Shown: positions 39,788 to 64,000 of the stretch, piece by piece | Layout: every line of letters starts with the position of its first letter | Position numbering within the stretch: the stretch's first letter is position 1 | From: Candidatus Izemoplasma sp. | Lineage (GTDB): Bacteria; Bacillota_I; Bacilli_A; Izemoplasmatales; Hujiaoplasmataceae | Direction of reading: 5' to 3' | Assembly: GCA_021736305.1 (NCBI GenBank) | Contig: JAIPGD010000003.1 | Location: 4,306-68,305 of the forward strand | Length of the DNA: 64,000 nt | Position numbers and translations under genes: made by a program | Notes under the pieces: model-generated | The model's database searches: none | Seen by the model: the letters and a program-made list of their open reading frames with translations, nothing else | Told to the model about the DNA's origin: nothing

Positions 39788-39830
39788 CTAATTCACCCCT
39801 GTCAATAAAATAAAATATATTATATATCAT

Positions 39831-41291: not shown

Positions 41292-41300
41292 AGAAATCTC

Positions 41301-42620: not shown

Positions 42621-42721
42621 TTTTCTCTCCTTTTAAAAAAATATTTACATAATTTCTTCTATTTGCTAAAGTATTTTTTTTATGATATATTCAAAATATA
42701 AAAAAACAAGTTGGTGATAAA

Positions 42722-43873: not shown

Positions 43874-44122
43874 ACATTTAAAATAACAAACATAGTTTAT
43901 CATTTAAACTAAGTTTTGTAAATATCAAATTATTAAAAACATAAATTTTTTATTACAGACTAAATTTATTAAGATAGATACTTTTATTTTTTTTGTTTTT
44001 ATAACAGTTTAATTTATTTATTTTTATAGTTAAAATATTACTATTTCAAATCAAAAATTTCAAATTTATGTACCAACGTGTTAAAATATATATAAGTAAA
44101 TAAATTTAAGGAGATGAATTAA

Positions 44123-45106: not shown

Positions 45107-45279
45107 TGTTTAATATAGTCAATTTTTCTTAAAAATATAACTAAAAGGATTAATTATAAATTGATTCTTTTTTTATGCTTTATATTTACATATTATTATA
45201 TTCTATGATATGATTATTGATGTTGTCTAAGCATATTCTAAAATAATATAGTATAGAGATAACTCAGGAGGACAATAAG

Positions 45280-45957: not shown

Positions 45958-45962
45958 TTTTG

Positions 45963-45986
45963 AAGTCGTTTTAAACGACTTTTTTG
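45963..45986 (+). terminator. terminator after the YczE-like gene
   Basis: AAGTCGTT-TTA-AACGACTT followed by TTTTGTT. Confidence 0.7.
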
Positions 45987-46066
45987 TTATAGTTAAAACT
46001 TAAATGATAATATGTTAAAATAAATTAGATTGATTTTTTAAAAATCTTTTTAAAAGGAGAAATTTG

Positions 46067-47074: not shown

Positions 47075-47218
47075 AATCTTTAGCTATAAATTTTAAAAAT
47101 AGAAAAATTCGCCAAAAAATATAGTAATTATCTAACTTTTAACAAACGTTAATCATTGATTAATTAAAAGATTAAATGTATAATATATTTAAGTATACAA
47201 TAAAAAAAAGAGGTTATT

Positions 47219-48353: not shown

Positions 48354-48383
48354 AAACCCCGGATAATTAATCCGGGGTTTTTT
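48354..48383. terminator. bidirectional terminator (kinase gene / msmK-like gene)
   Basis: AAACCCCGGA-TAATTAA-TCCGGGGTTT followed by TTTTG. Confidence 0.85.
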
Positions 48384-48402: not shown

Positions 48403-49509
48403 TTATTCTTTTATTCTCAATGTTGTTTCAGTATCAAAAAAATGAGCTTTATCCATATCTAACGCCATTTCTAATTCGTCTCCAATCTGAATATCAGCAC
48501 GAGCATTAATCATTGCGGTAACATCATTTTCTCCGACTTTAGCATAAACACTTGTTTCCGAACCTAATAATTCAGCCACATCAACATTAAATTTAACAAT
48601 TGCTTCTTTAAATTTTTCCTTAGATTCATTATCATCATGTATATCTTCAGGTCTTATACCCATCATTAATTCTTTACCAATGAAACCTTTTTCTTTGAGT
48701 AAATCTTTGTGAAATTTAGAAACTTTAACACTTATACCTTGGGCAGAAAATATACCTGATTTATCAACAACACCTCTAAAGAAATTCATTGGTGGAGTTC
48801 CAATAAAACCGCCAACAAATATATTATCAGGTTTATCATAAATATCTTTAGGAGCACCAATCTGTTGGATAAACCCATCTTTCATAACTACTATTCTATT
48901 AGCCATTGTCATAGCTTCAATTTGATCATGAGTTACATAAATTGTTGTTGTTTCAATTTTTTTATGTAATTTTATAATTTCACCACGCATTTGAACACGT
49001 AGTTTAGCATCTAAATTTGATAATGGCTCATCCATTAAGAATACTTTTGCATTACGCACAATTGCTCTTCCTAAAGCAACTCTTTGTCTTTGACCACCAG
49101 ATAAGGCTTTTGGTTTACGATCCAAATACTCAGTTAAACCTAATATTTGTGCAGCATTTCTCACTTTTTCGTCTATCATATCTTTCGGTTCTTTTCTAAG
49201 TTTTAATCCAAATGCCATATTATTATAAACAGACATATGTGGATATAAGGCATATGATTGAAAAACCATCGCAATATTTCGATCCTTAGGTGCCATATCG
49301 TTAACTAAAATATCATCAATATATAATTCACCATCAGTAATCTCTTCTAACCCAGCAACCATACGTAATGTCGTTGATTTACCGCAGCCTGAAGGCCCAA
49401 CAAAAACAATAAATTCTTTATCCCTGATTTCTAAATTAAATTCATCAACTGCAGGTCTATCACCTGGTGTGTATATTTTCTTAATGTTTTTAAATGTTAA
49501 AGTAGCCAT
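48403..49509 (-). CDS. CUT1 multitask ABC ATPase (MsmK/MsmX/UgpC type)
   Basis: GPSGCGKSTTLRMVAGLE, LSGGQRQRVALGRA and FLMDEPLSNLD motifs plus a C-terminal TOBE-like domain. Confidence 0.9.
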   Translation of the reverse strand: MATLTFKNIKKIYTPGDRPAVDEFNLEIRDKEFIVFVGPSGCGKSTTLRMVAGLEEITDGELYIDDILVNDMAPKDRNIAMVFQSYALYPHMSVYNNMAFGLKLRKEPKDMIDEKVRNAAQILGLTEYLDRKPKALSGGQRQRVALGRAIVRNAKVFLMDEPLSNLDAKLRVQMRGEIIKLHKKIETTTIYVTHDQIEAMTMANRIVVMKDGFIQQIGAPKDIYDKPDNIFVGGFIGTPPMNFFRGVVDKSGIFSAQGISVKVSKFHKDLLKEKGFIGKELMMGIRPEDIHDDNESKEKFKEAIVKFNVDVAELLGSETSVYAKVGENDVTAMINARADIQIGDELEMALDMDKAHFFDTETTLRIKE

Positions 49510-49588: not shown

Positions 49589-50146
49589 TTACTCTAGCAC
49601 TGATACTAGGGCTCTTAACCCTCTAAAAGTCTTAACATCAATATCAGTTAGTTGATAAATTTTGTCAATTCTGTAATTTAAAGAATTTCGGTGCAGATAA
49701 AGTTTTTTTGCTGCCACAGATAAATTCATATTCTTTTTGGCAATCATTAAAATTGTATTTATAGTTTCTTGTCCTAAATAATTTACTAAATGCCTTTTAA
49801 GTATTAGCCTTTCAAAATTATTTTTTGCTAACACAATTAGTATATCTACGATATCAAAAACCTTACAAGGTAATGTTTTAATCCATTTAGTAATAAATGC
49901 TTTAGATATAAAATTATAAACATTTTCCTTAAGATAAATCATAGTTGTGTCCACACCAAAATCGGTTACAATAGATGCATGAACCATATCTAAATCAATA
50001 AGCGTTTCATCAACATCTAAATCAATTTTAATCATCATTATTTCATCATCAAGGTATTCGATATTAACATGGTTATTTAGTTTCTCAAAAACTTCTTCCA
50101 TGTCTCTTTTAATTGATTTCTGATAGATAAAAACATCAAAACGCAT
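49589..50146 (-). CDS. short PucR/CdaR-type HTH protein
   Basis: The C-terminal NLSVAAKKLYLHRNSLNYRIDKIYQLTDIDVKTFRGLRAL matches the PucR C-terminal HTH pattern. At 185 aa it lacks the usual long sensor region. Confidence 0.6.
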   Translation of the reverse strand: MRFDVFIYQKSIKRDMEEVFEKLNNHVNIEYLDDEIMMIKIDLDVDETLIDLDMVHASIVTDFGVDTTMIYLKENVYNFISKAFITKWIKTLPCKVFDIVDILIVLAKNNFERLILKRHLVNYLGQETINTILMIAKKNMNLSVAAKKLYLHRNSLNYRIDKIYQLTDIDVKTFRGLRALVSVLE

Positions 50147-50160
50147 ATTTTGCTCCTTTT

Positions 50161-52284
50161 TTATTCATCAATAACATTTACTATTGCTTCATATAGAGTT
50201 TTTGAATTGGGTCCTACCTTAATTTTGTATTTGTGATTTTCTGCGGTATGAATCATATCTAAATTGTATGATCTAAAATCATTCACTGATAATTCAAATT
50301 GAATTGTTTGTTTTTCTTTAGGTTTAAGCATAATCTTTTTATATGCTTTTAACTCATTTACTGGTCTTGCTACACTAAAAGTCAATGCTTCAATATATAG
50401 TTGAATAATTTCTTCTGCTGCAAACGAAGATTGATTTGTGCAATCTATCGTTACCAATAGTTTATCATATTTATTTAAAGTTTGTTTATCGATTGATAAA
50501 TTTTCATATTTAAAAGTAGCATAAGATAACCCATAGCCAAATGGATATAGCGGTTCATTTTGACAATCTTGATATCTAGTATTATATCGATATTTAGGTC
50601 GGCTAAAATCAAAAGGTCTACCAGTTTGATAATGATTATAGTAAATTGGTATTTGTCCTTCATGATATGGAAAAGTCATTGTGATTTTACCACTCGGAAT
50701 TGATTCAGCCATAAGTAGAGATTTAATTGCTGGTCCCGCCTCTAAACCTGGTTGATACGCATAAAGAACAGCTTTAGCTAATTTATCAAATTTAGTAATA
50801 ATTAAAGGACGTCCTGCAAATATAACTACTACAATATTTTTATTATAAGAATAAATTTTTTCAAAATAATCGGTTTGTTCTTGTTTTAAATACAAGTTAG
50901 TTTTGCTATTACCTTCACCTGCTTCATTGCCTAGTTCTCCTAACGCCATAACAACTACATCTGCAGAACTAACAGATTCTTTAGAATCATCTGTAGTGAT
51001 TATTAATGTATCACTTGAGCTAAAAGCACTTAAAATGCTTGTCACATCTTTTTTATCAGCCATCGCTGACCATTCACCTATAACATCTTGAGAGTCTATC
51101 ATCGGTCCACATAGTAATATCTTCTGAGAAGTTTCAAGAGGTAAAATATTATCGTTTTTTAATAATACCATGCTTTTTTCAGCCGCTTCTTTTGATAAGG
51201 ATTTGGTTAAATCGTTTAAAATATATTGATTTGAATTTTCATAAAAATAACTATATGGATTATCCAAAAGACCTAAATCAAACTTTAGTTTTAATATTCT
51301 TAAAACTGATTCGTCAAGGTCGTTTTCTTTAATAGCTCCTTCTTCAATCAAATCTTTTAAATGATTAATATATGTTTCAGATACCATTTCAATATCCAAT
51401 CCTGCATCAAAACACTGATATGCAGCATCTTTTATATCTTTAGCAACTTTATGGTTAATGATTTCTTCAGTTGAAGTGTAATCTGAAATGATAGAGCCTT
51501 TAAAACCTAATTCATCTCTTAAAAGACCTTTAAGTAACTGCTTATTAGCTGTAGAAGGCCGATCAAATATAGTGTTAAAAGAAGTCATAATCATAGATAC
51601 TTCGCTTTTAATAGTTGATATAAAAGGCGGTAAATACATATTATATAAAACTCTTTTTGACATATCTACAGTATTATAATCTCTACCGGCTTCACTCTGA
51701 CCATAACCAATAAAATGTTTTGAACATGCAGCAATAGAGTTTGGATTTGACAAATCATTTTGTTGGTATCCTTCAACATAAGCTTTTGCAAGTATACTTG
51801 ATAAATATGGATCTTCTCCATTACTTTCCATAACTCTACCCCACCGTGGATCTCTAACTAAATCTACCATTGGCGAAAATGTTAAATGAATACCTCTATG
51901 AGCTGTTTCATAAGCAACTGCAGTAGAAACTCGTTTAATCAAATCACAGTCCCAACTATTAGATAACGCTAAATTTATAGGAAAAGCTGTTTTATATCCA
52001 TGTACTATGTCAAAACAAAAAATTAGAGGAATGCCTAATCTACTATCTTCAACAGCTGTTTTTTGTAATTTTAAAAGCATTTCTTCGTTATGAATATTTA
52101 ATATCGAACCAACCAAACCTTTTTTTATTCTTTTGATTGTTTCTGAAGAATTATATTCGTGTCCAGTAACTATATCAGAAAAAAAGGGCGCTTGATACAA
52201 TTGCCCAACCTTTTCATCTAATGTCATTTTTTCTAATAAGTTAATAACTTCTTTTGGATATTTATTCGCTATATTCTTATTCAT
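50161..52284 (-). CDS. GH3 beta-glucosidase (BglX type), cytoplasmic
   Basis: LGIPLIFCFDIVHG, RDPRWGR and GFKGSIISDY (nucleophile Asp region) motifs, with a C-terminal FnIII-like domain and no signal peptide. Confidence 0.85.
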   Translation of the reverse strand: MNKNIANKYPKEVINLLEKMTLDEKVGQLYQAPFFSDIVTGHEYNSSETIKRIKKGLVGSILNIHNEEMLLKLQKTAVEDSRLGIPLIFCFDIVHGYKTAFPINLALSNSWDCDLIKRVSTAVAYETAHRGIHLTFSPMVDLVRDPRWGRVMESNGEDPYLSSILAKAYVEGYQQNDLSNPNSIAACSKHFIGYGQSEAGRDYNTVDMSKRVLYNMYLPPFISTIKSEVSMIMTSFNTIFDRPSTANKQLLKGLLRDELGFKGSIISDYTSTEEIINHKVAKDIKDAAYQCFDAGLDIEMVSETYINHLKDLIEEGAIKENDLDESVLRILKLKFDLGLLDNPYSYFYENSNQYILNDLTKSLSKEAAEKSMVLLKNDNILPLETSQKILLCGPMIDSQDVIGEWSAMADKKDVTSILSAFSSSDTLIITTDDSKESVSSADVVVMALGELGNEAGEGNSKTNLYLKQEQTDYFEKIYSYNKNIVVVIFAGRPLIITKFDKLAKAVLYAYQPGLEAGPAIKSLLMAESIPSGKITMTFPYHEGQIPIYYNHYQTGRPFDFSRPKYRYNTRYQDCQNEPLYPFGYGLSYATFKYENLSIDKQTLNKYDKLLVTIDCTNQSSFAAEEIIQLYIEALTFSVARPVNELKAYKKIMLKPKEKQTIQFELSVNDFRSYNLDMIHTAENHKYKIKVGPNSKTLYEAIVNVIDE

Positions 52285-52293
52285 TGTAATCTC

Positions 52294-53001
52294 CTAATAG
52301 CCTTCAATGTCAATTGATTTAATAACAAATTGTTGGGGAAAGGCTGAATCATCGATCTTTCCACCCAAAGTGCCTCCAATAGCTAAATTGATAATTAGAT
52401 AGAAGGGTTGATTAAATGGCCAACCTTTTTGAGTAATATCTTTAGATTCTTCACCCCGATAATATGTATGTTCTTTTTTCCCATCAATAAAATAAGAAAT
52501 ATGGTCTTCTGTCCATTCAAAACCAAATTTATGAAATTGGTCTGCAATATTTTCTTTTTGTACTGAATAAAAATATTGGTCTTTTTGTGTGTGATTGTAT
52601 TTATCAGTATGAATACATAAATACAACAAATCCTTATTATTGCCTGTATGTTCCATAATATCTATTTCACCACTTCTTGGCCAATGACCATAGGTGTTAT
52701 CTTGTGGCATCATCCATATAGCTGGCCAAGTACCCTTACCACTTGGCACCTTAGCTACGATTTCTCCTTTTCCATACTTAAAGAAAAATTTATCTTTTGT
52801 GTGGATTCTAGCACTTTCATATATACCATGGGAAAAGGTAGCTTGAATAACCAAACCTTCATCACTAAAAAATATGTTTTTATCTTTATCTGTATACTGT
52901 TGTTTTTCATTATTTGAACTTTTTTTTCCAACTGCTATATTCCAAATGTTAGAATCTAAATTTTTCTCTTTAACAAAATCTATCTTTAATGTTTTTTTCA
53001 T
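52294..53001 (-). CDS. GH16 endo-beta-1,3-glucanase (laminarinase-like), no signal peptide
   Basis: WPAIWMMP and the GEIDIMEH catalytic ExDxxE motif. The N-terminus MKKTLKIDFVKEKNLD is not hydrophobic. Confidence 0.8.
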   Translation of the reverse strand: MKKTLKIDFVKEKNLDSNIWNIAVGKKSSNNEKQQYTDKDKNIFFSDEGLVIQATFSHGIYESARIHTKDKFFFKYGKGEIVAKVPSGKGTWPAIWMMPQDNTYGHWPRSGEIDIMEHTGNNKDLLYLCIHTDKYNHTQKDQYFYSVQKENIADQFHKFGFEWTEDHISYFIDGKKEHTYYRGEESKDITQKGWPFNQPFYLIINLAIGGTLGGKIDDSAFPQQFVIKSIDIEGY

Positions 53002-53006
53002 TTTAT

Positions 53007-54026
53007 CTAGTCCTTTAAAATTTTTGTAGAATCTCCATTAATTAAATATGTATCTACTGTAATTATATCTCCAGATTGAACTGTAGCAGGATGAATTAAA
53101 TACTGTAAAGTTTTTCGAGCAGCAATTTCACCCATCTTACGTGCATCCTGTTTAATAGTTGTAAGTTTTGGGGTAATCATTTGACCTATATCAACTCCAT
53201 CAAAACCAACTATAGAGTAATCTTCAGGAACACTTTTCCCAACATCTTTAATAGCTTGTATAGCTCCTATAGCTAACATATCAGAAGCACAAAAAATTGC
53301 TGTAGGTTGATCTTTCAAGCGCAAAATTTCTTGCATAGCACGGTATCCATCTTCCTTTGAAAAATATTGACCCGAAACCATAAATAATTCGCGTAAATCT
53401 AACTGAAATTTACGCATGCTAACTTCGAACGCTAACTTTCTTTGACCACCAATATATGTATGACGATCCCCATATATATGAGCAATTTTTTTATGGCCTA
53501 AATCTCTTAAAAAGCGAACTCCTTGTTCCATACCTTGATTATTATTAGAAGTTACAGTAACGGCCGATGGAACTGAATAGTCAATTAGAACAGTTGGTAT
53601 ATCTGACTGATAAAGCTCAATCATTTCATCACTATTAAAGTCTTCACAAAGCACCAATATACCATCTACTTGTTTTCTCATAGAATGCTGTAGATATGAA
53701 CCGGTTTGATTACCCATATTTTTAGCTAAAAACATAATATCATAACCTTTAGATTCAATAACATTTTTATAACTTTCTAATATTTTAGAAAATAAAGGAT
53801 GTTGTAAACCATAATCGGTAACATCTTCAAAGATAATGCCGATTGTATAACTATGTTGTGTTTTTAATGATTGAGCTGAAGAATTTGGAACGTAACCCAT
53901 TTCCTTAGCTAGTTTAACAATTGTATCCTTTGTTTTTACAGAAATATCTGAATAATTATTCAAAGCCTTTGACACAGTTGCTATACTAACACCTGATTTT
54001 TTTGAGATATCTTTAATTGTTACCAT
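53007..54026 (-). CDS. LacI-family transcriptional regulator
   Basis: VTIKDISKKSGVSIATVSKALNN...VKLAKEMGYVPNSSAQSLKT plus a PBP1 effector domain. Confidence 0.9.
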   Translation of the reverse strand: MVTIKDISKKSGVSIATVSKALNNYSDISVKTKDTIVKLAKEMGYVPNSSAQSLKTQHSYTIGIIFEDVTDYGLQHPLFSKILESYKNVIESKGYDIMFLAKNMGNQTGSYLQHSMRKQVDGILVLCEDFNSDEMIELYQSDIPTVLIDYSVPSAVTVTSNNNQGMEQGVRFLRDLGHKKIAHIYGDRHTYIGGQRKLAFEVSMRKFQLDLRELFMVSGQYFSKEDGYRAMQEILRLKDQPTAIFCASDMLAIGAIQAIKDVGKSVPEDYSIVGFDGVDIGQMITPKLTTIKQDARKMGEIAARKTLQYLIHPATVQSGDIITVDTYLINGDSTKILKD

Positions 54027-55669
54027 TATCCCACACTCACTATTTCAAAATAATTTAAATTAAACCCACCTGTTTGGGCATAAACTCTAAAAGTAAAAAC
54101 TCCTTCTTGGAGAGAAAATGTTTCACTAGAAACAGTTGACCATTCTTGCAAACCTCCAGTTGAATCAAAAGATAAAGAAAATAAAGGAAAACGACTCAAA
54201 GTAAATAATTGAATTGAAGATCCATCACTTTCGCTTGCGACTCTGAAGTTAATTTGATAATCGCCAGCTTCTTCAACTTCTAAAAGATATACCATATAAT
54301 CGCCATCATCAATCTCCCCAACATATATTGTATCATCATTGTCTTCAGATTGTTCAATCCTAACTCCAGAAGACTCTGAATAATCTTCTGCTTGAATTAC
54401 TCCTAAAGCTACTGGAACATCTTCGGTTGTTACCGATATAAGTGCAGGTTCAGAATGTTTACCATCAAAATCTTCAGCTAGTATTGCAATATTATAAGTT
54501 GTATCTGGTTCTAAATCATATAATCTTATTGCATTCAAAGATGTAGTTTCCTTTAACTGATCATTTACATAAATATTATAATGTGAAACAAGTACATCAT
54601 CAGTAGAATGTTCCCACTTGATTCTAATTGAATTATACAATCTGTCTTGTAATACTAAGTTTGTTGGCTTTGTGGGTTTTGTTTGATCCATTCCTGCATA
54701 ATCTTTTTGAAAAACTCTCACATAATCTACTTGTAAAGTTTGCGGAAAAATAGAGTCATCTATGCCTTGTGCACCGCCCCAATCACCGCCTACAGCTAAA
54801 TTGATTATTAAATGAAATGCTTTATCAAATGGCCAAGCATCACTATTTTCAATATCAATATTAAAATCAGCATTATAACCAAACTCAGCGAATTGTACTC
54901 CATCAATAAATAACTTAATATTTGAAGGTTCCCAAATCATTTCATAGACATGGAATTCCTCTTCTGCTGTTGGTAAAGACGTGCTATAACCTATTTGAGT
55001 ACCTAACCCATGATTATATGCACCAGTATGTATTGTCCCATGAATCACATTAGGCTCATACCCAACATATTCCATAATATCAATCTCACCACTAAAAGGC
55101 CAACCACCATAAGTTCTATCAGTCGGTAACATCCATACAGCAGGCCATAAGCCTCTACCTTCAGGTAATTTTGCTCTTACTTGAATTCTTCCGTAAGTCC
55201 AATCACCTCTATATTTAGTTACAAGTCTTGCTGATGTGTATTCATTGTCTTCAAAAGATTCTTTTATTGCTTTAATATTTAAAATACCATCTTCTACAAA
55301 TGCATTATCTAGATCTTCTCCGGTATAATATTGAAGTTCATTATTCCCCCAACCATCTCCTCCTATATCATAAGCCCAGTTATCAGAATTAGGTAAGCCA
55401 TCTTGATCAAATTCATCACACCATACAGGTTGCCAATCATCAATGTTATCAATAACTTGACATTCTTCAGGCACCAAGCTGCGTAGATCATAAGGCTCTT
55501 TAGTTGTAGTTATTTCTTGTGTTGAAGAATCCTGTGTTGTAGATTCTTGTGTTGTTGATCCATTTGTAGTTGGCCCATCAGTTGTTAAATCAGTAGTCAG
55601 GTCATCTTGACAAGACATTATTGAAACTGATAATAACATCAGCATTATTATACCTATAATTTTTTTCAT
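54026..55669 (-). CDS. surface lipoprotein: GH16 laminarinase + FN3 + C-terminal carbohydrate-binding module
   Basis: Lipobox SVSIMS|C, then a Thr/Ser-rich linker (DLTTDLTTDGPTTNGSTTQESTTQDSSTQEITTT). WPAVWMLP and GEIDIMEY mark the GH16 domain. An FN3-like segment follows (KPTNLVLQDRLYNSIRIKWEHS), then a CBM6-like IQAEDYSESSGV... Confidence 0.8.
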   Translation of the reverse strand: MKKIIGIIMLMLLSVSIMSCQDDLTTDLTTDGPTTNGSTTQESTTQDSSTQEITTTKEPYDLRSLVPEECQVIDNIDDWQPVWCDEFDQDGLPNSDNWAYDIGGDGWGNNELQYYTGEDLDNAFVEDGILNIKAIKESFEDNEYTSARLVTKYRGDWTYGRIQVRAKLPEGRGLWPAVWMLPTDRTYGGWPFSGEIDIMEYVGYEPNVIHGTIHTGAYNHGLGTQIGYSTSLPTAEEEFHVYEMIWEPSNIKLFIDGVQFAEFGYNADFNIDIENSDAWPFDKAFHLIINLAVGGDWGGAQGIDDSIFPQTLQVDYVRVFQKDYAGMDQTKPTKPTNLVLQDRLYNSIRIKWEHSTDDVLVSHYNIYVNDQLKETTSLNAIRLYDLEPDTTYNIAILAEDFDGKHSEPALISVTTEDVPVALGVIQAEDYSESSGVRIEQSEDNDDTIYVGEIDDGDYMVYLLEVEEAGDYQINFRVASESDGSSIQLFTLSRFPLFSLSFDSTGGLQEWSTVSSETFSLQEGVFTFRVYAQTGGFNLNYFEIVSVG

Positions 55670-55671
55670 AT

Positions 55672-56649
55672 CTATTCTCCTGTAATTCCGGTTTTGTCAA
55701 TTGCCTCAACAAAATGTTTTTGAGTAAAGAAAAATAAAATAAGTAAAGGCAAAATTGTTAATATATTTCCAGCTAATTTAGCTGATTGCATTAATTCCCG
55801 TGCAGTTGATCCTTCTGGATATAAGCTTGCATAATTAACCATAAATTGTTCAACCCTTAAAGGTAATGTCAACATATCACTACCTCTTAAAAATAATCCA
55901 GATAAGTAAGTCTCATTATAATACCATACAAAACTAAATAAGAAAACAATGATGATAGCTGGCACAGCCAAAGGTATTGCGATTTTAGTAAAAATTTTAA
56001 GAGGCCCGGCACCATCTAATTGAGCTGATTCCATCAAAGAGTTTGGAATCATCCTAAAAAACGAATAAAAAATCAAAATATAAATCGCTCCATTGAATCC
56101 TTGTCCAAGAATTGCTGGATAGATGAATGTTCTAATCGAACCTAGTAGATTATAATTTGCATACATTCTAAAAGTCGGCATCATAGTAATTTGTGGCGGA
56201 ATGATAAAAGTAAGAATCATCAACGCCATTAAAATTTTCTTAAAAGGAAAATCATATTTAGCAAAGCCATAACCAATCAATGCGCTTGAAAATGTCGCTG
56301 AGAGTGCAGGTAAACCGGCCAAAATAATAGCATCTTTTAAAGCATTTGGATAATCTATTGCATCCCAAACTATTTTATAATTCTCAAGAGTAAATGAAGA
56401 TGGAACCCATTTTACTGAAACATCAATTATATCATTCATAGTCATGAAACTAAAAGAAATCATATACAACATTGGATAAAGATATATATAACCTAACCCT
56501 ACCAACATCAAATATATAGCAACTTTAAAGAAAAGTCCATCCGTAAATTTCATACCGAACAAAAAGCGCTTAAACCTTGATTTTGAGCGATTTTTATCTT
56601 TTTTAACAAAATTTACTATTTTAGTTTTAACTCCCAATAATCTATTCAT
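55672..56649 (-). CDS. CUT1 carbohydrate ABC permease (LplC/MalG-like) with basic N-terminal extension
   Basis: EAA loop ESAQLDGAGPLKIFTKIAIPLAVP. The start is set at ATG 56649, 1 nt after the upstream stop; the track's TTG start would overlap the upstream gene by 38 nt. Confidence 0.8.
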   Translation of the reverse strand: MNRLLGVKTKIVNFVKKDKNRSKSRFKRFLFGMKFTDGLFFKVAIYLMLVGLGYIYLYPMLYMISFSFMTMNDIIDVSVKWVPSSFTLENYKIVWDAIDYPNALKDAIILAGLPALSATFSSALIGYGFAKYDFPFKKILMALMILTFIIPPQITMMPTFRMYANYNLLGSIRTFIYPAILGQGFNGAIYILIFYSFFRMIPNSLMESAQLDGAGPLKIFTKIAIPLAVPAIIIVFLFSFVWYYNETYLSGLFLRGSDMLTLPLRVEQFMVNYASLYPEGSTARELMQSAKLAGNILTILPLLILFFFTQKHFVEAIDKTGITGE

Positions 56650-56650: not shown

Positions 56651-57715
56651 TTATTTTGCCCTCTTTCCTCTAATGTTAATTGCACCAACGAAAACCAAGA
56701 TAATAAGCGCCATTACAATAAAATAGATCCAAGACAAAGTTGCAGTATATCCATATCCCGTAGTTAATGCTGGTGTTGATTCACCAAGCATTTTTCCTCT
56801 GATATAAACAATTACATCATTCAAACTAAATACACTCATAGAAACTACAGTATATATAATTGATATTGTGATTAAAGGTTTAATTGAAGGTAACGTAATT
56901 TTCCAAAATGATTCCCAAGGACTAGCTCCATCAATCATTGATGCTTCATAAATTGACTTATCAATTTTTTGTAAACCAGCCAAGAATATTAAAATTTGAA
57001 TTCCTGCAAACCAAAGGATAAATAAGATCTCATCAAACAAAGCTTGAATTGGGTTAGCTAAAAAAGAACCGACATTTTCAATAATTAAATCGATAAATTG
57101 ATAATTTTCAATAGACGGAAGCGTTGTTGCCCCTTGATTCATTAGCTCGCTAATTACAGGTCCAGAAGCTATAATAACCGGCAAGAAAAAGATAGTTCTC
57201 CAAAATCCTTTACCACGGATATCTTGATTGATTAATAAAGCAATAATTAAGGCAAATACAATTGTCACTGGAACATTTAATAGCATCGATAAAGCGTAAT
57301 TTATCAAAATCTCAACAAAATAAGGATCAGATAAAAATGCAGCACGATAATTATTGAATAATTCGAATTCCGTATTGATATCAGATCCAGCTAAACGAAC
57401 TTTAAAAAAGCTCAGATACAGACTATTAAACACTGGATACAAAGAAAAAATTAAATATCCAATAATCCAAAGAAATATAAAGCCAAAACCAGTTATTGCT
57501 TGTTGTCTTTTGTTTGTTCTTTTTATTTTAAATTTATCAAATAAAACTACATGAGTATAAGAAACATGAATAAATTTACTATGAAACATTTTATATATAA
57601 CTTTTCTTATCGGTATAAAAATATATTTCTCTAATGGTAACCAAATATATTTATTACTAAATTGTAATATACTTTGAAAAGTCTTTTTAAAAACTTTTTT
57701 AAGTGAGTTTTTCAT
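56651..57715 (-). CDS. CUT1 carbohydrate ABC permease (LplB/MalF-like) with ~75-aa basic N-terminal extension
   Basis: EAA loop EASMIDGASPWESFWKITLPSIKP. The ATG is 6 nt after GAGAGGTG. Confidence 0.8.
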   Translation of the reverse strand: MKNSLKKVFKKTFQSILQFSNKYIWLPLEKYIFIPIRKVIYKMFHSKFIHVSYTHVVLFDKFKIKRTNKRQQAITGFGFIFLWIIGYLIFSLYPVFNSLYLSFFKVRLAGSDINTEFELFNNYRAAFLSDPYFVEILINYALSMLLNVPVTIVFALIIALLINQDIRGKGFWRTIFFLPVIIASGPVISELMNQGATTLPSIENYQFIDLIIENVGSFLANPIQALFDEILFILWFAGIQILIFLAGLQKIDKSIYEASMIDGASPWESFWKITLPSIKPLITISIIYTVVSMSVFSLNDVIVYIRGKMLGESTPALTTGYGYTATLSWIYFIVMALIILVFVGAINIRGKRAK

Positions 57716-57716: not shown

Positions 57717-60068
57717 CTATACACCTCTCACTAAGTAATTTATGGGTTGGATGACTTCACCATCATATGTATAAGAGTTCTGAGTATAATTAATGATAAT
57801 TTCAATACCATTAGAATATTCTATAACGGCAATTCCTTCATCAGGAACTATTCTAGAAATAATTTCTTCGCCTTGGACATGAGATAGTGCATCATTAATC
57901 CATTGATATTCTTCTACAATGGTTTCTTTCCAAACATCAAATTCTGAAGAATAGAAATATTCCACATCAGTACCAGCTAACTTTGATGGACGTGCTTCTG
58001 TCAATAAGTATGAAGGATAAACATTATAATCAATCAACATCAACAATTGGGTTCTGCCTAGACTATTAAAGTTCATATGTTGGGAAAACATCTCAACATA
58101 ACCACTTAAAACAATTTGTAATATAGGTACTAAATCGTCAAAGAAATTATATTGATTATTATAAAGCGGTATATCATAATAACTATCTAGCCCTACAAAC
58201 GCATAATAGTTTGGCTGAACATATTGAGCATTATTTTGATAACTTTCAATAATGCCTTTATAAATATCTAAAGAGTCTTTGCGAGTATAAATTTTATCAT
58301 CAAAGTATGTAAATAAAATTGAACCCAAGGATTCAAACAACACATCAACACCTTTTTCTTGATAATCTGCTAAATCATCCATTGCTCTTTCTAGTGAAAA
58401 TTCAGGATATAATAAATATCTATTTTTATAAACACAATTTTCACAAGTTGTTTCTAACTTGAATCTGTCTACTGCTTCAGCCACATCTCTACCATATGAG
58501 AGGCTATCTGAACTATTTGAACCTATTACATAATTATTAACTAATAATAATTCGTTTGTTTCTTCAATTTTCTCAATTAAATCAATAAAAGCTTTATTTC
58601 TTCCTAACTTATTTTCAAAATCAACTTTACTTGGTAATTGGCCACTATAACCACCATCATTCCAGCCTAATAATGAAACTCGTTGGTTAGATAAACCTTC
58701 ATCAATAAAGTAATCATACATAGAATCAATGTCATTAACATCTGTCATTTCAATTAACTCACGACCAATAAAACGGCTTCTCGAATCAGACATTAAATAT
58801 CGAGTATGAACTGGTATCTGACTTGATTGAGTACTTATTTGTTCAAAAACTCCATCCTCAACCAATTTATTTTGATAGGCTTGAGCCATTCCAACATAAT
58901 TTGCTTGATCACCATCAAGAAAATCATATCGAATATGAATATCTTGATCATTTGACTCATATACTCTCAAAGCACCACCAGTTCTATCAGTAGTAAAACT
59001 CTGTGTATACGTTTGTTTTAAGTCAAATTTGTTATATATAAGATTATAATCTACATTAGTAGCTCCATTTGGAAAAACGATTAATCTTGCGTTAGTTGAG
59101 CCAGATTCAACAATACCTAAAAAAGCATTTTGATTTACCCCATGTACTGCCCCAAAAATAGGTAAAGACAAACGATATTGATTAAATGAAGTAGTTCTTC
59201 TCGTAATACCAAAATCACTACCAAAATAGCTTGATTCATAAGGTGTTACATATTTCCCTTCATTGTCTTCGTAACGAATAAGCGCACCTGCACCATCAGG
59301 AATCATCATATATCCAGGTATATCGTCTAAATAGGTTGCTCCTAAACCAGGAAATGGAATAATACTAGATAATAAAATAACATCAGAATTACCTTCGTAA
59401 ATAGAATCAATTGGTATATAAAATTCTAACCCTGACTCGGTTAAGGTTACTTCGTAAGAAAATTCTAATTTAAGTTCAGTGTAGTTATATTCTTCAATCA
59501 TTTGTTCTAAAGTGATTTGCCCAGCAATGTATCTGTCATAGTAACGCGAGCATAAACGATCGGCACAAGCACCTTCAATATTTACATCAAACTTAACTGT
59601 TTGATCAACTATAGTTTGTTCAAAAGTAAATTCAGTCTCAGTAATACCGATATTTTTACGATTATTATAATTTTGACTAACATTTAGATACTCAAAGCCT
59701 ATCCCACTTTCTAAAAAATCAGAAAAGGTTCCTGCTTGTGCATTATCAATGGTTGTACTCCAAACATAGCCTGTAAGTTTATTCACAACTTTCATGCCTA
59801 ATGTATCTTCATTCAAATGCAAAATATATTGATCATTTTCTAAAATCTCTTCATCTTTTCTTGTAATCTCAACATAATCTTCTAAATCCACATTTCTAAG
59901 ATCATCTGGATGAGTATATCTTGATGATTCAAAAAGTAAATCTTCTGTAAAATCATTCATATTTTGAGATGAACTACTTACGTTATTGATACTCGTTGTA
60001 TTGACAACAACATAAGATGTTGATACTAAGCTTAAAACTATTAATATTTTCTTAACGATCGACAACAC
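57717..60068 (-). CDS. large N-terminally anchored/secreted protein of unknown function (context resembles DUF5696-type proteins)
   Basis: 783 aa with an N-terminal hydrophobic anchor (KKILIVLSLVSTSYVVV). GTG start 7 nt after GGAGGTG. I recognise no catalytic motif. The DUF label comes only from remembered gene-neighbourhood patterns. Confidence 0.4.
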   Translation of the reverse strand: MLSIVKKILIVLSLVSTSYVVVNTTSINNVSSSSQNMNDFTEDLLFESSRYTHPDDLRNVDLEDYVEITRKDEEILENDQYILHLNEDTLGMKVVNKLTGYVWSTTIDNAQAGTFSDFLESGIGFEYLNVSQNYNNRKNIGITETEFTFEQTIVDQTVKFDVNIEGACADRLCSRYYDRYIAGQITLEQMIEEYNYTELKLEFSYEVTLTESGLEFYIPIDSIYEGNSDVILLSSIIPFPGLGATYLDDIPGYMMIPDGAGALIRYEDNEGKYVTPYESSYFGSDFGITRRTTSFNQYRLSLPIFGAVHGVNQNAFLGIVESGSTNARLIVFPNGATNVDYNLIYNKFDLKQTYTQSFTTDRTGGALRVYESNDQDIHIRYDFLDGDQANYVGMAQAYQNKLVEDGVFEQISTQSSQIPVHTRYLMSDSRSRFIGRELIEMTDVNDIDSMYDYFIDEGLSNQRVSLLGWNDGGYSGQLPSKVDFENKLGRNKAFIDLIEKIEETNELLLVNNYVIGSNSSDSLSYGRDVAEAVDRFKLETTCENCVYKNRYLLYPEFSLERAMDDLADYQEKGVDVLFESLGSILFTYFDDKIYTRKDSLDIYKGIIESYQNNAQYVQPNYYAFVGLDSYYDIPLYNNQYNFFDDLVPILQIVLSGYVEMFSQHMNFNSLGRTQLLMLIDYNVYPSYLLTEARPSKLAGTDVEYFYSSEFDVWKETIVEEYQWINDALSHVQGEEIISRIVPDEGIAVIEYSNGIEIIINYTQNSYTYDGEVIQPINYLVRGV

Positions 60069-62085
60069 GATAGTACACCTCCATGAAGATATCTTTAACT
60101 AAGATAAATAATTCATTTAAAAGAATATATAAGATAAATACTCCTAGTAACATCATAACCATCGTAAAAGCTGAAATAAAGATTGATTTTATTGTCTCTT
60201 TGACATTATAGAAATGAGTTTCTTTAACCATAAAGAAGAAATAAACTACTGTCAACATAATAGCAATAGTATGCATAAATGAAATAATAAATGCTTCATT
60301 GTATGTTAAAACTTGTGATAAAAGCGCAATTAAAGGTAAAGTAAAAAAGTAAGGCGCTAAACAATAAATTGAGGTTATATAAACATCTTTTAGTCTTCCT
60401 TCTCCTTCTCTAATCGTTCCAATAAGGAAATTTGATACAACCCAAAGAATTATAGGTAAGATTATTTTAATCAACTCTTCTATTACATTAATGTTTTCAA
60501 TTTGACGATCATTAAATAGAAAAGCTAAATTATATATATAGAAGATATAGAACAAAAAATATAACCCAAGTAAAATTGTTACAGGAAATATTTGAATTCT
60601 ATTCTTTCTTTTTATTTCATAAGTTTTATCAGCTGGATTTCTCAAATATGAAAAAACATAGAGAATTTGATCCGTTGTCTTTGATTTGCTTCTAACCCAT
60701 TTGATTCCTTTTTTTATTGGCATCATAGCATAAGCAACAATTTTAACTTTTATATTAACAATAAAGATCAATAACAAAACAAAAAATATTATAACAAAAG
60801 TTGCAGCATAATCAATTAACCATGCGTTTCTAACTTCCCAAAATGCATCACTATATCCATCTCTATCATTTGCTACATAATACTCTTCTAAAGCATCATC
60901 ATATTCGCCTAAACTAAAGTAGGCATTTGCCATTCCCTTGTGAGCTAAATCAAAAAAGTCATTCATTTTCAATACTTCTCCCCAAGGTTCTTGAGACTCA
61001 ACGTAAAAGCCTTCTTGATAATCTTTCAAAGCCTCATGAACAAAATCAGTGAAAACGGTTGGAGAATAGATTTTTAATACTTTACTTCCGCGATCTAAGA
61101 CATAGATGTTAGAATTATCATCAACTGCTATAGAAGATGGTTGATTCATCAGCCCTTGGACTTGATTAGTTATATCATTTCCACCAAAGGTAAACAATAA
61201 ATTTCCATCTATATCATACTCATAAATCATCCCTTCACGACTTACAGTATAAATGTTTCCAAGCGGACCAACATAGACATCAACTAAATTTTGTCCAACA
61301 AACATCTGAGGCAACAAATTATCACCACTGATATTTAATCTCTTAACATTTTGGCCACCATCGCCAAGTGATACAGTATGAATTAATCCTCTGTTATCAA
61401 TGGCCATATTCGATACTTCTGGAGGAGTTAAATTAAATAAACTGTTTAATTGTTCTTCAGTAAAAAAAGTATATTGTAAAACTGTTCTTAAAGTTGGTGT
61501 AATTGTATTAGAACCAAAATAAGCTAAGAATTCTCCATCATTAGTAAATTGAGCTAACCCTTTAACACCATTATTTAATATGTAAACATTTCCCCTAGAA
61601 TCTGTAATGATTTTCTTAGGTTTTAAATCTTCAGTTCCAAACAAAGGCGATTCTGGTTTTGTATAAGTTACTAAAATATTTCCAGAAGAATCTAATTTAT
61701 ACGCTGTTTGTCCGCTTTGATCAGCTACATAAATATTGCCTTCTTCAGTTGTAAAAACGCCTGTTGGATTAACTAAAAAATCACTGCCTAAAACAACTGC
61801 AGATTTAGTGTTCATATCATAAACGATAATTTTTCCGCTATCACCTGTAGTAGAAGCAATAAATAACTTATTATTTTTTATATCTATATCCATAGGAGTA
61901 TCTAAAGAAACTCCATCTAACTCATCAATATCTGTGACCGGAATATAAGCGATTTGAGTTCTAACTAGCCGGCCATCACTTAAGGTATATGTGTTATAGT
62001 TGACACCATTTTCTGCATTTATTGTAGTGCCTATTAATAAAGATATGGTTAATACTGAAAGAAATATCAATAATATCTTCTTCAT
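60052..62085 (-). CDS. fusion protein: signal peptide + NHL-type six-bladed beta-propeller + C-terminal Yip1-like polytopic membrane domain
   Basis: Signal peptide MKKILLIFLSVLTISLLIGTTINA. There are six blade-like repeats: NKLFIASTTGD, GNIYVADQSG, GNVYILNNG, GLIHTVSLGD, GNIYTVSREG and SNIYVLDRGS. After about residue 425 there are 5-6 hydrophobic helices. Confidence 0.6.
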   Translation of the reverse strand: MKKILLIFLSVLTISLLIGTTINAENGVNYNTYTLSDGRLVRTQIAYIPVTDIDELDGVSLDTPMDIDIKNNKLFIASTTGDSGKIIVYDMNTKSAVVLGSDFLVNPTGVFTTEEGNIYVADQSGQTAYKLDSSGNILVTYTKPESPLFGTEDLKPKKIITDSRGNVYILNNGVKGLAQFTNDGEFLAYFGSNTITPTLRTVLQYTFFTEEQLNSLFNLTPPEVSNMAIDNRGLIHTVSLGDGGQNVKRLNISGDNLLPQMFVGQNLVDVYVGPLGNIYTVSREGMIYEYDIDGNLLFTFGGNDITNQVQGLMNQPSSIAVDDNSNIYVLDRGSKVLKIYSPTVFTDFVHEALKDYQEGFYVESQEPWGEVLKMNDFFDLAHKGMANAYFSLGEYDDALEEYYVANDRDGYSDAFWEVRNAWLIDYAATFVIIFFVLLLIFIVNIKVKIVAYAMMPIKKGIKWVRSKSKTTDQILYVFSYLRNPADKTYEIKRKNRIQIFPVTILLGLYFLFYIFYIYNLAFLFNDRQIENINVIEELIKIILPIILWVVSNFLIGTIREGEGRLKDVYITSIYCLAPYFFTLPLIALLSQVLTYNEAFIISFMHTIAIMLTVVYFFFMVKETHFYNVKETIKSIFISAFTMVMMLLGVFILYILLNELFILVKDIFMEVYYRVVDR

Positions 62086-62960
62086 TATTTAATACCTGAA
62101 TGTGCCATAGTATTCATGACTTTATTTTGTAAAATTATAAATAGAACAATGTTTGGTGCAAACATTATAAAACTTGCTGCCGCCCTCATACCTTGTCCTG
62201 CTACAGGGTTACCAACTAGAGCTGTCAATGTAGAAAAATAGAATGGCAAAGTTTTCAAACTATCACTGTCTACATAAAGCGCTGATCCTAAAGTATCATT
62301 CCAAATTAACTGGAAGGATAGAATTCCAACAGTCGCAACTGCCGGAGCAATAATTGGCATGATAATTTTCAAGAAAATTTGCATCTCACTAGCTCCATCA
62401 ATTTTTGCTGACTCAATCACCTCATTAGGTGTTTGATCAATAAATTGTTTAACCAAAAACAAACCAACAGGAATAGCGATTAATGGCAAAATAAGTGCAA
62501 AATATGAATCAATAATACCAATTTTTGACATAGTTAAATACCTTGGAATAGTTACCGCAATCGGTACAAACATTAACGCCAAGGTATTTATTTCAAACAA
62601 TAATTTCTTGCCCTTAAACTTTAGCTTTGATAAACCATATGCAGCTAAAGATGTAATTAAAATACTCAAAAACACCCCAACTACTGTTACCAAAATACTG
62701 TTAAACAAATAACGACTAAAAGGTATACCTGATTCCGCAGCTAAACTTACTAAATTCTTGAAATTATCTAAAGTTGGCCTTCTAACAAGAAATCTTGGTG
62801 GCCAAGCATATAGTTCATTTGTTGGTTTAAATGCATGACTAATAATAAAAACAATTGGCAATCCAACAAATATAGACATTGGAATCAATACTGCAAAGAA
62901 TTTAATTTGACTTTTATGAAATTTTTTAGGGTTGATTTTAGTTCCGCTAAATTTTGACAT
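62085..62960 (-). CDS. CUT1 carbohydrate ABC permease (MalG-like)
   Basis: EAA loop ESAKIDGASEMQIFLKIIMPIIAP. The start is ATG 62960 (AGGTGA RBS) or the GTG at 62969, which overlaps the upstream TGA. Confidence 0.85.
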   Translation of the reverse strand: MSKFSGTKINPKKFHKSQIKFFAVLIPMSIFVGLPIVFIISHAFKPTNELYAWPPRFLVRRPTLDNFKNLVSLAAESGIPFSRYLFNSILVTVVGVFLSILITSLAAYGLSKLKFKGKKLLFEINTLALMFVPIAVTIPRYLTMSKIGIIDSYFALILPLIAIPVGLFLVKQFIDQTPNEVIESAKIDGASEMQIFLKIIMPIIAPAVATVGILSFQLIWNDTLGSALYVDSDSLKTLPFYFSTLTALVGNPVAGQGMRAAASFIMFAPNIVLFIILQNKVMNTMAHSGIK

Positions 62961-62965
62961 ATGTC

Positions 62966-63859
62966 TCACCTATTCTTTTCGCCTAGTAAATTAAAAGTTA
63001 CTTTTGAAATACTATATATCATTATTAAAAGGACTACTGAAACAGCTGATGCATAACCCATTAAATATCTAATAAACCCAAAATCTTCAATATGATTAAC
63101 CATCAATTGCCCAGCGTATTGTGGCGTAGGATTTGCTCCAGATAGCTGGACACCTATTGCTCCAACAGTAAACGTTCCTACAACTGACATTACTGCTCCA
63201 AAAAGCATCTGGGGTTTCATAGACGGAATTGTAATATAAAAGATTTCTTGCCAACGATTTCTCATGCCATCAACATAAGCAGCTTCATACAAGCTCTGAT
63301 CAATATTTAGAATACCAGCTAACATTGCTAAAAATCCAACCCCCATTGACCCCCATAATGAAACAATAATCATTATGTTCATCAAATAATCTGGTGATTG
63401 TAAAAATTGTATTGGTTCTTGAATCATCCCCCAGTTCATCAATAAAGCGTTAAGATAACCGGTGGAATTACCAGAGAAAATAACTGTCCATACTACAGCC
63501 ATTGCAATACCCGCTGTCATCGAAGGACTGTAGAGTATTATCGCAATAATAGTTCTTGCTCGATGAGGAATTTGAGCTAACATCCAAGCCAATATAAAAC
63601 TTAGCATGTAACCTACTGGTCCAACAATAAAAGCAAATTTTATCGTATTAGGTAAAACATATTGCATAAACACTTCATCTCTTGTCAATAATTCAATATA
63701 GTTTCTTAAGCCTACAACTTCAGGGGTTTCAATAGTATTAAAATATGTAAAAGAAAGAACAATCGCTATCAATACCGGAATAATAATAAATGTAAAAAAC
63801 AACATTACATAAGGGGTCAAAAACCACCATGGAGAATTCATTTTACTAGTCATCATCAT
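62966..63859 (-). CDS. CUT1 carbohydrate ABC permease (MalF-like)
   Basis: EAA loop [25 protein letters not shown] with 6 TM segments. It ends in TGA. Confidence 0.85.
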
Positions 63860-64000
63860 GCTCCTTTAACCAATAGTCTATGTTATAAATTGTTGGTACA
63901 GTATATGATTTAATTACTACACCATTTTCAACATAGCCAAATTCTTCCATCCTATATAGAATTTCGCGATTAGCAGTTTTAACTGCCTCATCTAAAGCAA
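63846..64000 (-). CDS. C-terminal end of an extracellular solute-binding protein (family 1); gene runs off the right edge
   Basis: Not in the ORF track. Minus-strand translation: ...[50 protein letters not shown]. The ALDEAVKxAN helix is typical of the C-terminus of sugar SBPs. It overlaps the permease start by 14 nt. Confidence 0.55.

Follow-up and report, generated by a model that had tools for sequence, protein, structure and literature searches.

A conserved accessory pair, an NHL-TPR-Yip1 fusion and a DUF5696 protein of predicted GH129-like fold, within a doubled CUT1 importer cassette of β-glucan loci

In Gram-positive and wall-less bacteria, ATP-binding cassette (ABC) sugar importers are usually depicted as an assembly of a solute-binding protein (SBP), two permeases and an ATPase. 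In the Sus-like systems or 'utilisomes' of Bacteroidota, surface glycan-binding proteins and a surface glycosidase are associated with a SusCD transporter. Here, a stretch of 64,000 nucleotides (nt) from Candidatus Izemoplasma sp. (contig JAIPGD010000003.1, positions 4,306 to 68,305), denoted as the window, was analyzed with respect to two adjacent genes, which are located between two pairs of CUT1 permease genes and code for a fusion protein of 677 amino acids (aa) with NHL, TPR-like and Yip1-type modules and for a DUF5696 protein of 783 aa. With a confidence slightly above even, these two proteins are interpreted as the central accessory subunits of a station on the cell surface that processes glucan and hands it over, built into a double CUT1 ABC importer. 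The proposed logic resembles that of the utilisomes, namely surface-tethered binding and cleaving proteins which supply a transporter encoded together with them. In contrast to the outer-membrane, TonB-dependent Sus-like systems, however, the components are entirely unrelated, the transporter is a cytoplasmic-membrane ABC importer of monoderm bacteria, and its assembly with the two proteins is a prediction.

As to the catabolic enzymes, the closest described systems are the β-1,2-glucan locus of Listeria innocua, comprising an SOGP-type enzyme of glycoside hydrolase (GH) family 94, a GH3 enzyme, a Sopn-binding SBP and one ABC importer, and the SGL/SOGP/GH35 clusters of the Nakajima group. Their enzyme set is shared by the loci compared here, as the cassette is flanked in Bacilli and Chloroflexota by genes for GH144, SOGP-type GH94, GlmA-like GH35 and LacI proteins (cf. 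PMC8861115). Whereas the described clusters contain a single ordinary SBP and one permease pair, the cassette harbors a second SBP and a second permease pair, one of the SBPs measuring ~985 aa, as well as the accessory pair; in the β-1,2-glucan cluster literature examined (including PMC8861115) the NHL-Yip1 and DUF5696 genes are not mentioned. A polytopic Yip1-type membrane protein encoded together with an ABC transporter has a precedent in Bacillus, where YknW, a member of the Yip1 family, is reported to complete the four-component transporter YknWXYZ as its fourth component (PMC4887032). Joint function is reported for YknW and proposed for the fusion protein. YknYZ, however, is a MacB-type exporter for a peptide toxin and not a type I sugar importer, YknW lacks a propeller/TPR ectodomain, and YknWXYZ lacks a GH-like partner. 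Searches of the literature library used returned no paper on DUF5696 and only unrelated papers for Yip1-family proteins with ABC transporter permeases.

For the ectodomains, the closest characterized proteins are PknD of Mycobacterium tuberculosis (PDB codes 1RWI and 1RWL), with an extracellular six-bladed NHL propeller, and two GH129 enzymes, namely the α-N-acetylgalactosaminidase NagBb of Bifidobacterium bifidum (5WZN) and DagB/ZGAL_3152 of Zobellia galactanivorans, a 3,6-anhydro-D-galactosidase (5OPQ and 8RZK), in the following ZgGH129. No relative of DUF5696 closer than GH129, with an identity of ~12%, was found in the PDB.

Gene calls place all genes of the cassette and operon region on the minus strand. 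In the direction of transcription, the window contains the following part of the cassette:

63846..64000, minus strand: 3′ end of the large SBP gene (~985-aa class), clipped by the window edge; frame and stop codon were read
62966..63859, minus strand: permease A1, 297 aa, UgpA/MalF-like CUT1 membrane subunit (Pfam BPD_transp_1, best NCBIfam match)
62085..62969, minus strand: permease A2, 294 aa, UgpE/MalG-like (Pfam BPD_transp_1, best NCBIfam match)
60052..62085, minus strand: fusion protein, 677 aa, with signal/anchor, NHL propeller, TPR-like linker and Yip1-type domain with six transmembrane segments (TMs)
57717..60068, minus strand: DUF5696 protein, 783 aa, predicted membrane-anchored ectoprotein with GH129-like fold (PF18952, AlphaFold, Foldseek)
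56651..57715, minus strand: permease B1, MalF-like, likely ATG start at 57715, 1 nt past the DUF5696 stop
55672..56649, minus strand: permease B2, MalG-like, likely ATG start at 56649

The stop codon of the large SBP gene overlaps the start of permease A1 by 14 nt, permease A2 and the fusion share a TAATG junction (1-nt overlap), and the fusion overlaps the DUF5696 gene by 17 nt, the latter beginning with a GTG codon that is preceded by a Shine-Dalgarno site, GGAGG, at a distance of 9 nt. DUF5696 and permease B1 are separated by a single nucleotide (TAG-G-ATG), and the junction between permeases B1 and B2 reads TAA-T-ATG. Because the reading frames overlap, coupled translation of fusion, DUF5696 and permeases is expected, and both accessory genes are predicted to be translationally coupled to the flanking CUT1 permease pairs. 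The two genes, the complete permease pairs on either side and the three junctions described in the original prediction, which had been derived from the DNA letters, are all present. Its 'two-gene module' consists of two real genes as well, but forms the center of an eight-gene cassette, and the operon runs on to an ATPase gene. The MalF/MalG-like permeases (four BPD_transp_1 matches), the SBP_bac_1 protein upstream and an ATPase with OB_MalK and TOBE_2 domains identify a CUT1 importer, the layout of which departs from the standard operon with one SBP and two permeases by a second SBP, a second permease pair and two accessory membrane proteins.

This arrangement is maintained over large phylogenetic distances. 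A scan of species-representative genomes with DUF5696 patterns yielded at least 554 confirmed matches, of which 80 loci were kept, and a reciprocal metagenome scan via the fusion protein, independent of the former, contributed another 33. The resulting 113 loci span Mycoplasmatota, Bacilli, Clostridia and Chloroflexota. Wherever flank or contig is long enough, the order permease-permease-fusion-DUF5696-permease-permease is found in all 80 genome and all 33 metagenome loci; the co-occurrence of the gene pair with CUT1 permeases, which had been named beforehand as a check, is absolute in this sample. The entire cassette reads small SBP, ~985-aa SBP, permease pair A, fusion, DUF5696 and permease pair B, with both SBPs upstream of pair A in complete loci. 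As the sole rearrangement among the 113 loci, the small SBP directly follows permease pair B in three metagenome loci (L108, L109 and L114) of a clade with ~36% identity. Since the small SBP has been relocated next to pair B in these three distant loci, a functional pairing of the large SBP with pair A and of the small SBP with pair B is suggested. Cross-phylum identities amount to 57–79% for permease pair A (A1 66–79%, A2 57–78%), 41–61% for pair B, 37–58% for the large SBP over its full length, 24–56% for the small SBP, 34–55% for the fusion and 26–44% for DUF5696. An exhaustive profile search assigns 5,199 clusters, represented at 50% identity, to the DUF5696 family at E≤1e-3, 3,210 of them with E≤1e-30.

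Two complete pairs of transmembrane subunits together with two SBPs, the smaller of which is able to relocate beside pair B, could also represent two separate ABC importers, one for long and one for short oligosaccharides. Fusion and DUF5696 would then be co-transcribed surface proteins outside any complex, which might for example anchor the cell to particulate glucan; their contact with the permeases is indeed a prediction from the gene arrangement. Such independence is nevertheless regarded as improbable, as both accessory genes keep their place precisely between the two permease pairs in each of the 113 loci, irrespective of phylum, and their overlapping frames imply coupled translation. 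Furthermore, the conserved linker and the cytoplasmic Yip1 loops of the fusion, described below, fit interactions at the membrane level rather than a free adhesin, and YknW is reported to be part of the transporter itself (PMC4887032).

The fusion protein is divided into an ectodomain, a linker and a membrane domain:

61060..61998, minus strand: six-bladed NHL β-propeller ectodomain, residues 30–342 (PDB sequence matches, Foldseek, Pfam)
60811..61059, minus strand: juxtamembrane helical/TPR-like linker, residues 343–425 (TPR matches, conservation)
60055..60810, minus strand: membrane domain, residues 426–677, with TM1, a basic loop in the cytoplasm and a Yip1-type bundle of five TMs

In Pfam the fusion matches NHL (PF01436, 22.6 bits, cut-off 20), SBBP (30.3 bits, cut-off 20.5) and a TPR unit. 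Sequence searches of the PDB relate residues 98–339 to PknD (E 7e-7), to TRIM NHL domains and to the 'Pizza' designed six-bladed NHL propellers, and residues 356–421 to TPR designs. The AlphaFold model contains ~25 strands within residues 32–342 as well as helices in the membrane domain, and Foldseek superimposes the propeller on six-bladed NHL domains with TM-scores to the target of 0.75–0.81 (~0.75 for PknD). Different from PknD, where the propeller is connected to a cytoplasmic kinase via one TM, the propeller of the fusion is joined to the TPR-like linker and the Yip1-type bundle. The Yip1 family (PF04893) aligns with residues 480–649 over almost the entire model (3–171 of 173) with 26.8 bits, just below the gathering cut-off of 28.6. 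Of 30 homologues, 25 match Yip1 (E≤1e-3, best 4.8e-9), 28 match NHL and 18 match TPR_1. Pfam, PDB sequence matches and Foldseek agree with the six NHL-like blades and the helical linker originally read from the translation, the N-terminal hydrophobic segment fits the signal peptide, and the C-terminal 5–6-TM domain resembling Yip1 is supported by six hydrophobic segments and by the homologues. The annotation of the propeller as a lactonase, found in some JGI records ('sugar lactone lactonase YvrE'), was rejected, since SMP-30/SGL is weakly touched by 6 of the 30 homologues compared to 28 for NHL.

Hydrophobicity reveals one N-terminal and six C-terminal hydrophobic segments, and in combination with charge bias a topology is predicted in which a signal/anchor is followed by an acidic ectodomain of 404 aa, TM1, a 53-aa loop and five further TMs. 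The 53-aa loop contains 14 lysine or arginine residues versus 3 aspartate or glutamate residues and is for this reason placed in the cytoplasm. The five hydrophobic segments of the Yip1 bundle lie between residues 499 and 663, after the additional TM1. Among 99 diverse fusion sequences, the juxtamembrane linker (343–425) is the most conserved segment, with 22% of its positions conserved in at least 95% of the sequences, as compared to 12% in the propeller and 11% in the Yip1 TMs. Conserved GEG and KE.H motifs are located in two predicted cytoplasmic loops of the membrane domain. These conserved loops, and the resemblance of the propeller to the extracellular sensor domain of PknD, would also be compatible with a sensor or signaling pair, in which the NHL propeller detects glucan and the Yip1 domain transmits this to the importer or to gene expression. 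Yet Pfam detects no kinase, helix-turn-helix (HTH) or other output domain in the window protein or its 30 homologues, and the loci already have cytoplasmic LacI-type regulators. In a variant of this explanation the pair would remodel the surface glucan of the cell itself, against which speaks that the flank census described below is uniformly catabolic and contains no linked glucan synthase. Together, sensing and self-remodeling are very improbable.

The second protein is assigned to DUF5696 (PF18952) with 468.4 bits (cut-off 25.6; E 4.7e-140), residues 192–778 covering positions 13–612 of the 612-residue model, and all 32 aligned homologues match the same family. Where the original prediction saw no assignable motif and a neighborhood like that of DUF5696 beside YIP1 genes, the label was apt, but it applies to the 783-aa protein itself. 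Four regions are distinguished:

59994..60068, minus strand: N-terminal membrane anchor, residues 1–25 (hydrophobic residues 4–22 after KK; model helix 2–25)
58899..59891, minus strand: N-terminal β-sandwich, residues ~60–390, carrying the motif GYMxIPDGxGALIRY with the invariant D258
57876..58898, minus strand: (β/α)8 barrel, residues ~391–731 (model secondary structure, conservation, GH129 anchors)
57720..57875, minus strand: C-terminal β-sandwich, residues 732–783 (AlphaFold model)

The N-terminal anchor, already proposed before and corresponding to a single N-terminal hydrophobic segment, is present in 69 of 73 DUF5696 homologues, and a later hydrophobic segment in none. Thus the large domains of fusion and DUF5696 are both predicted to lie outside the cell, tethered to the membrane.

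The AlphaFold model of DUF5696, calculated from the 32-sequence alignment, shows high confidence values (pLDDT 88.4, pTM 0.88) and consists of an N-terminal β-sandwich, a (β/α)8 barrel and a C-terminal β-sandwich. The top match of Foldseek in the PDB is ZgGH129 (8RZK), which is aligned over the full length (E 1.5e-29, TM-score 0.63 for the query and 0.73 for the target, ~767 aligned columns), followed by NagBb (E 2e-27) and next by GH101, GH36 and GH31 enzymes. The identity to GH129 in the structural alignments is ~12%. Similarity at the sequence level is faint. A single-sequence phmmer search of the window protein against PDB sequences gave chance matches only, and neither Pfam, searched with 32 members at E≤10, nor NCBIfam returned a GH family, the Pfam matches being noise. 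In profile searches of the PDB, however, GH129 enzymes are the only matches, with E 0.053 for the first profile and 0.0045 (ZgGH129) and 0.044 (NagBb) for a diversified one, hence too weak for GH129 membership by sequence (E 0.0045–0.06 overall). These alignments extend over the beginning of the N-domain, the helix leading into the barrel and strands 2–3 including the 'GW..G..P' motif after strand 2. Judging from the model, DUF5696 is built like a GH129/GH101-type glycosidase, and a conserved pocket is located on the catalytic face of its barrel, in line with the earlier suspicion of an unrecognized glycoside-hydrolase-like protein. Unlike its characterized α-glycosidase relatives, which are soluble, it is membrane-anchored and, in the loci examined, encoded only in β-glucan ABC importer cassettes.

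Two cysteine pairs were observed in insertions of DUF5696. Near-invariant C168 and C173 belong to a clade-specific insertion (residues ~148–190, window ~59500–59630) which none of the Bacilli or Chloroflexota homologues contains, and a CxxC motif (C542, C545) is found in the insertion following barrel strand 3. Both pairs could be extracellular disulfides or a metal site.

Whether the barrel is catalytic was assessed by comparison with the residues published for GH129. In ZGAL_3152 the N-terminal β-sandwich comprises residues 35–299, the TIM barrel 300–620 and an Ig-like domain 621–693, and mutagenesis-sensitive residues are D486, E517, E531 and D202, the latter belonging to the partner monomer's N-domain (Ficko-Blean et al. 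2017, PMC5698469). The sole catalytic residue common to NagBb and ZgGH129 is the nucleophile aspartate (D435 and D486, respectively), while the acid/base, E478 in NagBb with E517 and E531 as candidates in ZgGH129, is not common to both structures (PMC5698469). These positions were mapped by two sequence anchors and the published residue numbers. With Tyr300 of ZgGH129 equated to Tyr391 of DUF5696, the spacing leads from D486 to about residue 577, and with D367 of NagBb equated to N512, from D435 to about residue 580. Both anchors arrive within two residues of E579, which directly follows a barrel strand (VLFE) and is the candidate equivalent of the GH129 nucleophile. A search with a 49-aa fragment of ZgGH129 as query gave no matches.

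Position 579 is acidic (Asp or Glu) in 81% of 73 DUF5696 sequences, with Glu in the Izemoplasmatales-type clade of the window, which has Asn at position 512, and Asp together with D512 in Bacilli, Clostridia and Chloroflexota. Residue 512, at the C-terminus of β3, is Asn or Asp among family members. As a side observation, both positions covary, the combinations being N512 with E579 in the window clade, D512 with D579 in most others, D512 with a non-acidic residue in Acholeplasmataceae and no acid at either position in locus L046. Universally conserved are D258, D/E428, W469, R596, Y622, D/E645, N666 and D/E680, the first seven of them being assigned to loops or strand ends on the catalytic face. 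According to the secondary structure of the model, D428, W469, E579, R596, Y622, D645 and N666 are positioned at or just past the C-termini of barrel strands. As several universal residues are found at these strand ends, the canonical barrel pocket appears to be under selection. The strongest motif of the family, GYMxIPDGxGALIRY, is located in the N-domain, and its invariant D258 might, speculatively, be the counterpart of Asp202 in the N-domain of ZgGH129.

With three domains, a full-length structural match and the 'GW..G..P' motif, and with E579 as a candidate at nucleophile spacing, DUF5696 resembles GH129, from which it differs by its low identity, the not universally acidic position 579 and the lack of a conserved acid/base. 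We lean towards DUF5696 being a genuine enzyme that would found a new GH family with a distant relationship to GH129, although with little more than even confidence. Several observations weigh against it. Position 579 is occupied by Ser, Asn, Thr, Gln or Gly in a clade of Acholeplasmataceae and two species of Paenibacillus which retain the whole cassette, and such a loss is uncommon for residues essential to catalysis. At the acid/base spacing of NagBb (Y622/N620 region) a conserved acid is missing, although D/E645 and D/E428 are universally acidic nearby. The characterized structural relatives (GH129, GH101, GH36 and GH31) are all α-retaining, whereas the loci are specific for β-glucan, and the geometry of the active site is derived from secondary structure and spacing only. 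That DUF5696 is instead a non-catalytic glucan-binding subunit is considered rather unlikely. Slightly less weight still is given to the extended form of this explanation, in which a catalytically dead, tethered binding or scaffold subunit, comparable in function to surface glycan-binding proteins, only captures chains together with the fusion and presents them to the SBPs, cleavage being left to GH16, GH144 and other enzymes. It would account for the variation at position 579, the missing acid/base, the α-specific relatives in β-glucan loci and the universal residues, which are mostly Tyr, Trp, Arg, Asn and His as typical of sugar-binding sites. Against it, D258, D/E428, D/E645 and D/E680 make up four positions at which all sequences carry an acid. 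Relocated catalytic residues are moreover normal in this fold group, as ZgGH129 and NagBb share a single catalytic residue and ZgGH129 recruits an aspartate of the N-domain (PMC5698469). Finally, the Bacilli loci encode no extracytoplasmic enzyme other than possibly DUF5696 itself.

Of the two SBPs, the small one comprises ~460 aa and the large one ~985 aa. On the source contig the gene upstream of permease A1 (L081:1-2157) codes for at least 718 aa with SBP_bac_1/SBP_bac_8 matches. In the large SBP the fold is confined to the C-terminal third, where ~300–400 residues match SBP_bac_1 and the best PDB match is CbpB (7X0I, E 5e-14). The N-terminal extension of ~570 aa belongs to no family and gives faint CBM35 and Golvesin_C matches (e.g. 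L017:3239-6205 and L048:3135-6095), and conservation across phyla extends over the full length including this region. An apparent absence of the small SBP from Mycoplasmatota was rejected, since Pfam misses this family and phmmer links it to the Bacillus-type small SBP with 24–25% identity over 99% of the length. For the small SBP of Fictibacillus (L048:1739-3103) a close homologue has been solved (five PDB entries, 22hh–22hl, 'Extracellular solute-binding protein family 1', E 9e-98). A literature search for 22hh found no associated paper; a related locus may be under study elsewhere, and the ligands in these entries could be a pointer to the substrate of the Bacillus-type cassette.

In all loci the cassette is embedded in a β-glucan catabolic context. 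Downstream of permease B2, the operon of the window continues as follows:

54026..55669, minus strand: lipoprotein laminarinase with GH16, fn3 and CBM6 domains, predicted extracellular endo-β-1,3-glucanase (Pfam, PDB 3ILN, lipobox ...IMSC)
53007..54026, minus strand: LacI-family regulator (translation; LacI-like reading frames are kept here in related loci)
52294..53001, minus strand: short GH16 laminarinase without signal peptide, predicted cytoplasmic (Pfam, PDB matches)
50161..52284, minus strand: GH3 β-glucosidase, predicted cytoplasmic (Pfam)
49589..50146, minus strand: PucR-type C-terminal HTH protein, 185 aa, no other domain, between GH3 and ATPase
48403..49509, minus strand: MalK/MsmK-type ABC ATPase (ABC_tran, OB_MalK, TOBE_2), preceded by a gap of ~80 nt
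48354-48380: strong terminator downstream of the ATPase gene

The terminator is the sole strong one of the operon, and the ATPase is likely to energize both permease pairs. LacI proteins were confirmed in other cassette loci; besides the LacI gene of the window, the 185-aa PucR-type protein is a second regulator-like gene of the operon. Both GH16 enzymes match the solved laminarinase 3ILN (E 2e-89 for the long and 5e-46 for the short enzyme), which supports the β-glucan setting of the importer as first proposed; the long form is a lipoprotein with CBM6, and no signal peptide is present in either the short GH16 or the GH3. The adjoining region 38261-48340 is occupied by a sugar-catabolism cluster with genes for a 508-aa two-domain ABC ATPase, an FGGY kinase, a xylose-isomerase-like TIM-barrel protein, a ROK protein, an aldo/keto reductase, an aldose 1-epimerase and a prokaryotic ketohexokinase. 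The GC content is 26–34% throughout the window, and the GC skew is negative over most of it, matching the majority of minus-strand genes. A scan for promoter-like sites was uninformative in this AT-rich sequence (84 sites versus 96 expected), and the Rfam scan of window positions 1-64000 yielded no family at gathering score.

Outside the Izemoplasmatales, a census of the flanks (105 proteins from 22 loci) counted 14 PF10091 'Glycoamylase' proteins, 13 LacI regulators, 13 GlmA-like GH35 enzymes and 8 GH94 enzymes with SOGP domains, and in smaller numbers GH16, GH3, GH30, GH2 and GH43. For the PF10091 protein, a match to the solved GH144 endo-β-1,2-glucanase 5GZH was obtained (E 1e-42), and a GH94 protein of 1,102 aa carries all four SOGP domains. 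The triad of GH144, SOGP-type GH94 and GH35 is the published signature of β-1,2-glucan clusters (PMC8861115). Because the flanking enzymes differ accordingly, the same cassette appears to serve loci for β-1,3-glucan in the clade of the window and for β-1,2-glucan in other clades. Signal peptides are missing from all GH144, GH35 and SOGP enzymes of the Bacilli loci (e.g. GH144 at L039:14042-15295 and L043:14321-15541; further copies include L049:14126-15334 and L050:14146-15354), and the only extracytoplasmic proteins are the two SBPs, the propeller fusion and DUF5696. Chloroflexota loci contain one lipoprotein and one cytoplasmic copy of GH144. A cytoplasmic endo-glucanase implies that chains long enough to need it, possibly cyclic β-1,2-glucans, are imported.

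On the favored reading of a surface station, soluble laminarin would be cut outside the cell of the window organism by the GH16-fn3-CBM6 lipoprotein. The anchored DUF5696 ectodomain would bind the resulting or the intact glucan chains and most likely cleave or remodel them at the membrane surface, while the NHL-TPR-Yip1 protein would hold the station against the two permease dimers via its conserved linker and Yip1 bundle. Products would then be handed over to the two SBPs, the conserved large one delivering to the highly conserved pair A and the variable small one to pair B. Import would be energized by the MsmK-type ATPase from the operon end, cytoplasmic GH16 and GH3 would complete the degradation, and LacI would regulate the locus. 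The predicted topology with both ectodomains outside the cell is consistent with the surface capture or processing device feeding the transporter that was suggested at the outset. Weighing against this scheme, the physical association of fusion, DUF5696 and permeases is deduced from synteny and coupling, and the model of the fusion, though recognized by Foldseek as a six-bladed NHL propeller, is only moderately confident (pLDDT 75, pTM 0.53). A bolder version, which is unlikely as a whole, regards the products of all eight genes as one physical supercomplex, the monoderm counterpart of a utilisome. Here the fusion would organize two importers around DUF5696, which would represent a new GH or transglycosylase family derived from the α-glycosidase fold of GH129/GH101 and acting on large or cyclic β-glucans. 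If true, chains with a degree of polymerization of at least 5 would be threaded directly into the transporter, which would explain why Bacilli keep their endo-β-1,2-glucanase in the cytoplasm.

The fusion protein combines three known modules (NHL, TPR and Yip1) in an architecture for which no published description was found, and what is new at the level of the locus is a polysaccharide-utilization ABC importer whose transporter is doubled and accompanied by a conserved, undescribed accessory pair. In the sea, laminarin makes up a major pool of carbon, and β-1,2-glucans serve bacteria as factors of symbiosis and virulence; the set of enzymes known to degrade the latter is still small. The presence of the cassette in cultivable Fictibacillus, Lederbergia and Paenibacillus opens these hypotheses to genetics. 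If active, DUF5696, with its ~5,200 clusters, would constitute a new GH family, and it can be put forward as a concrete candidate for CAZy. A cassette with two additional anchored ectoproteins and a second permease pair suggests an unrecognized organization of polysaccharide uptake in monoderm bacteria.

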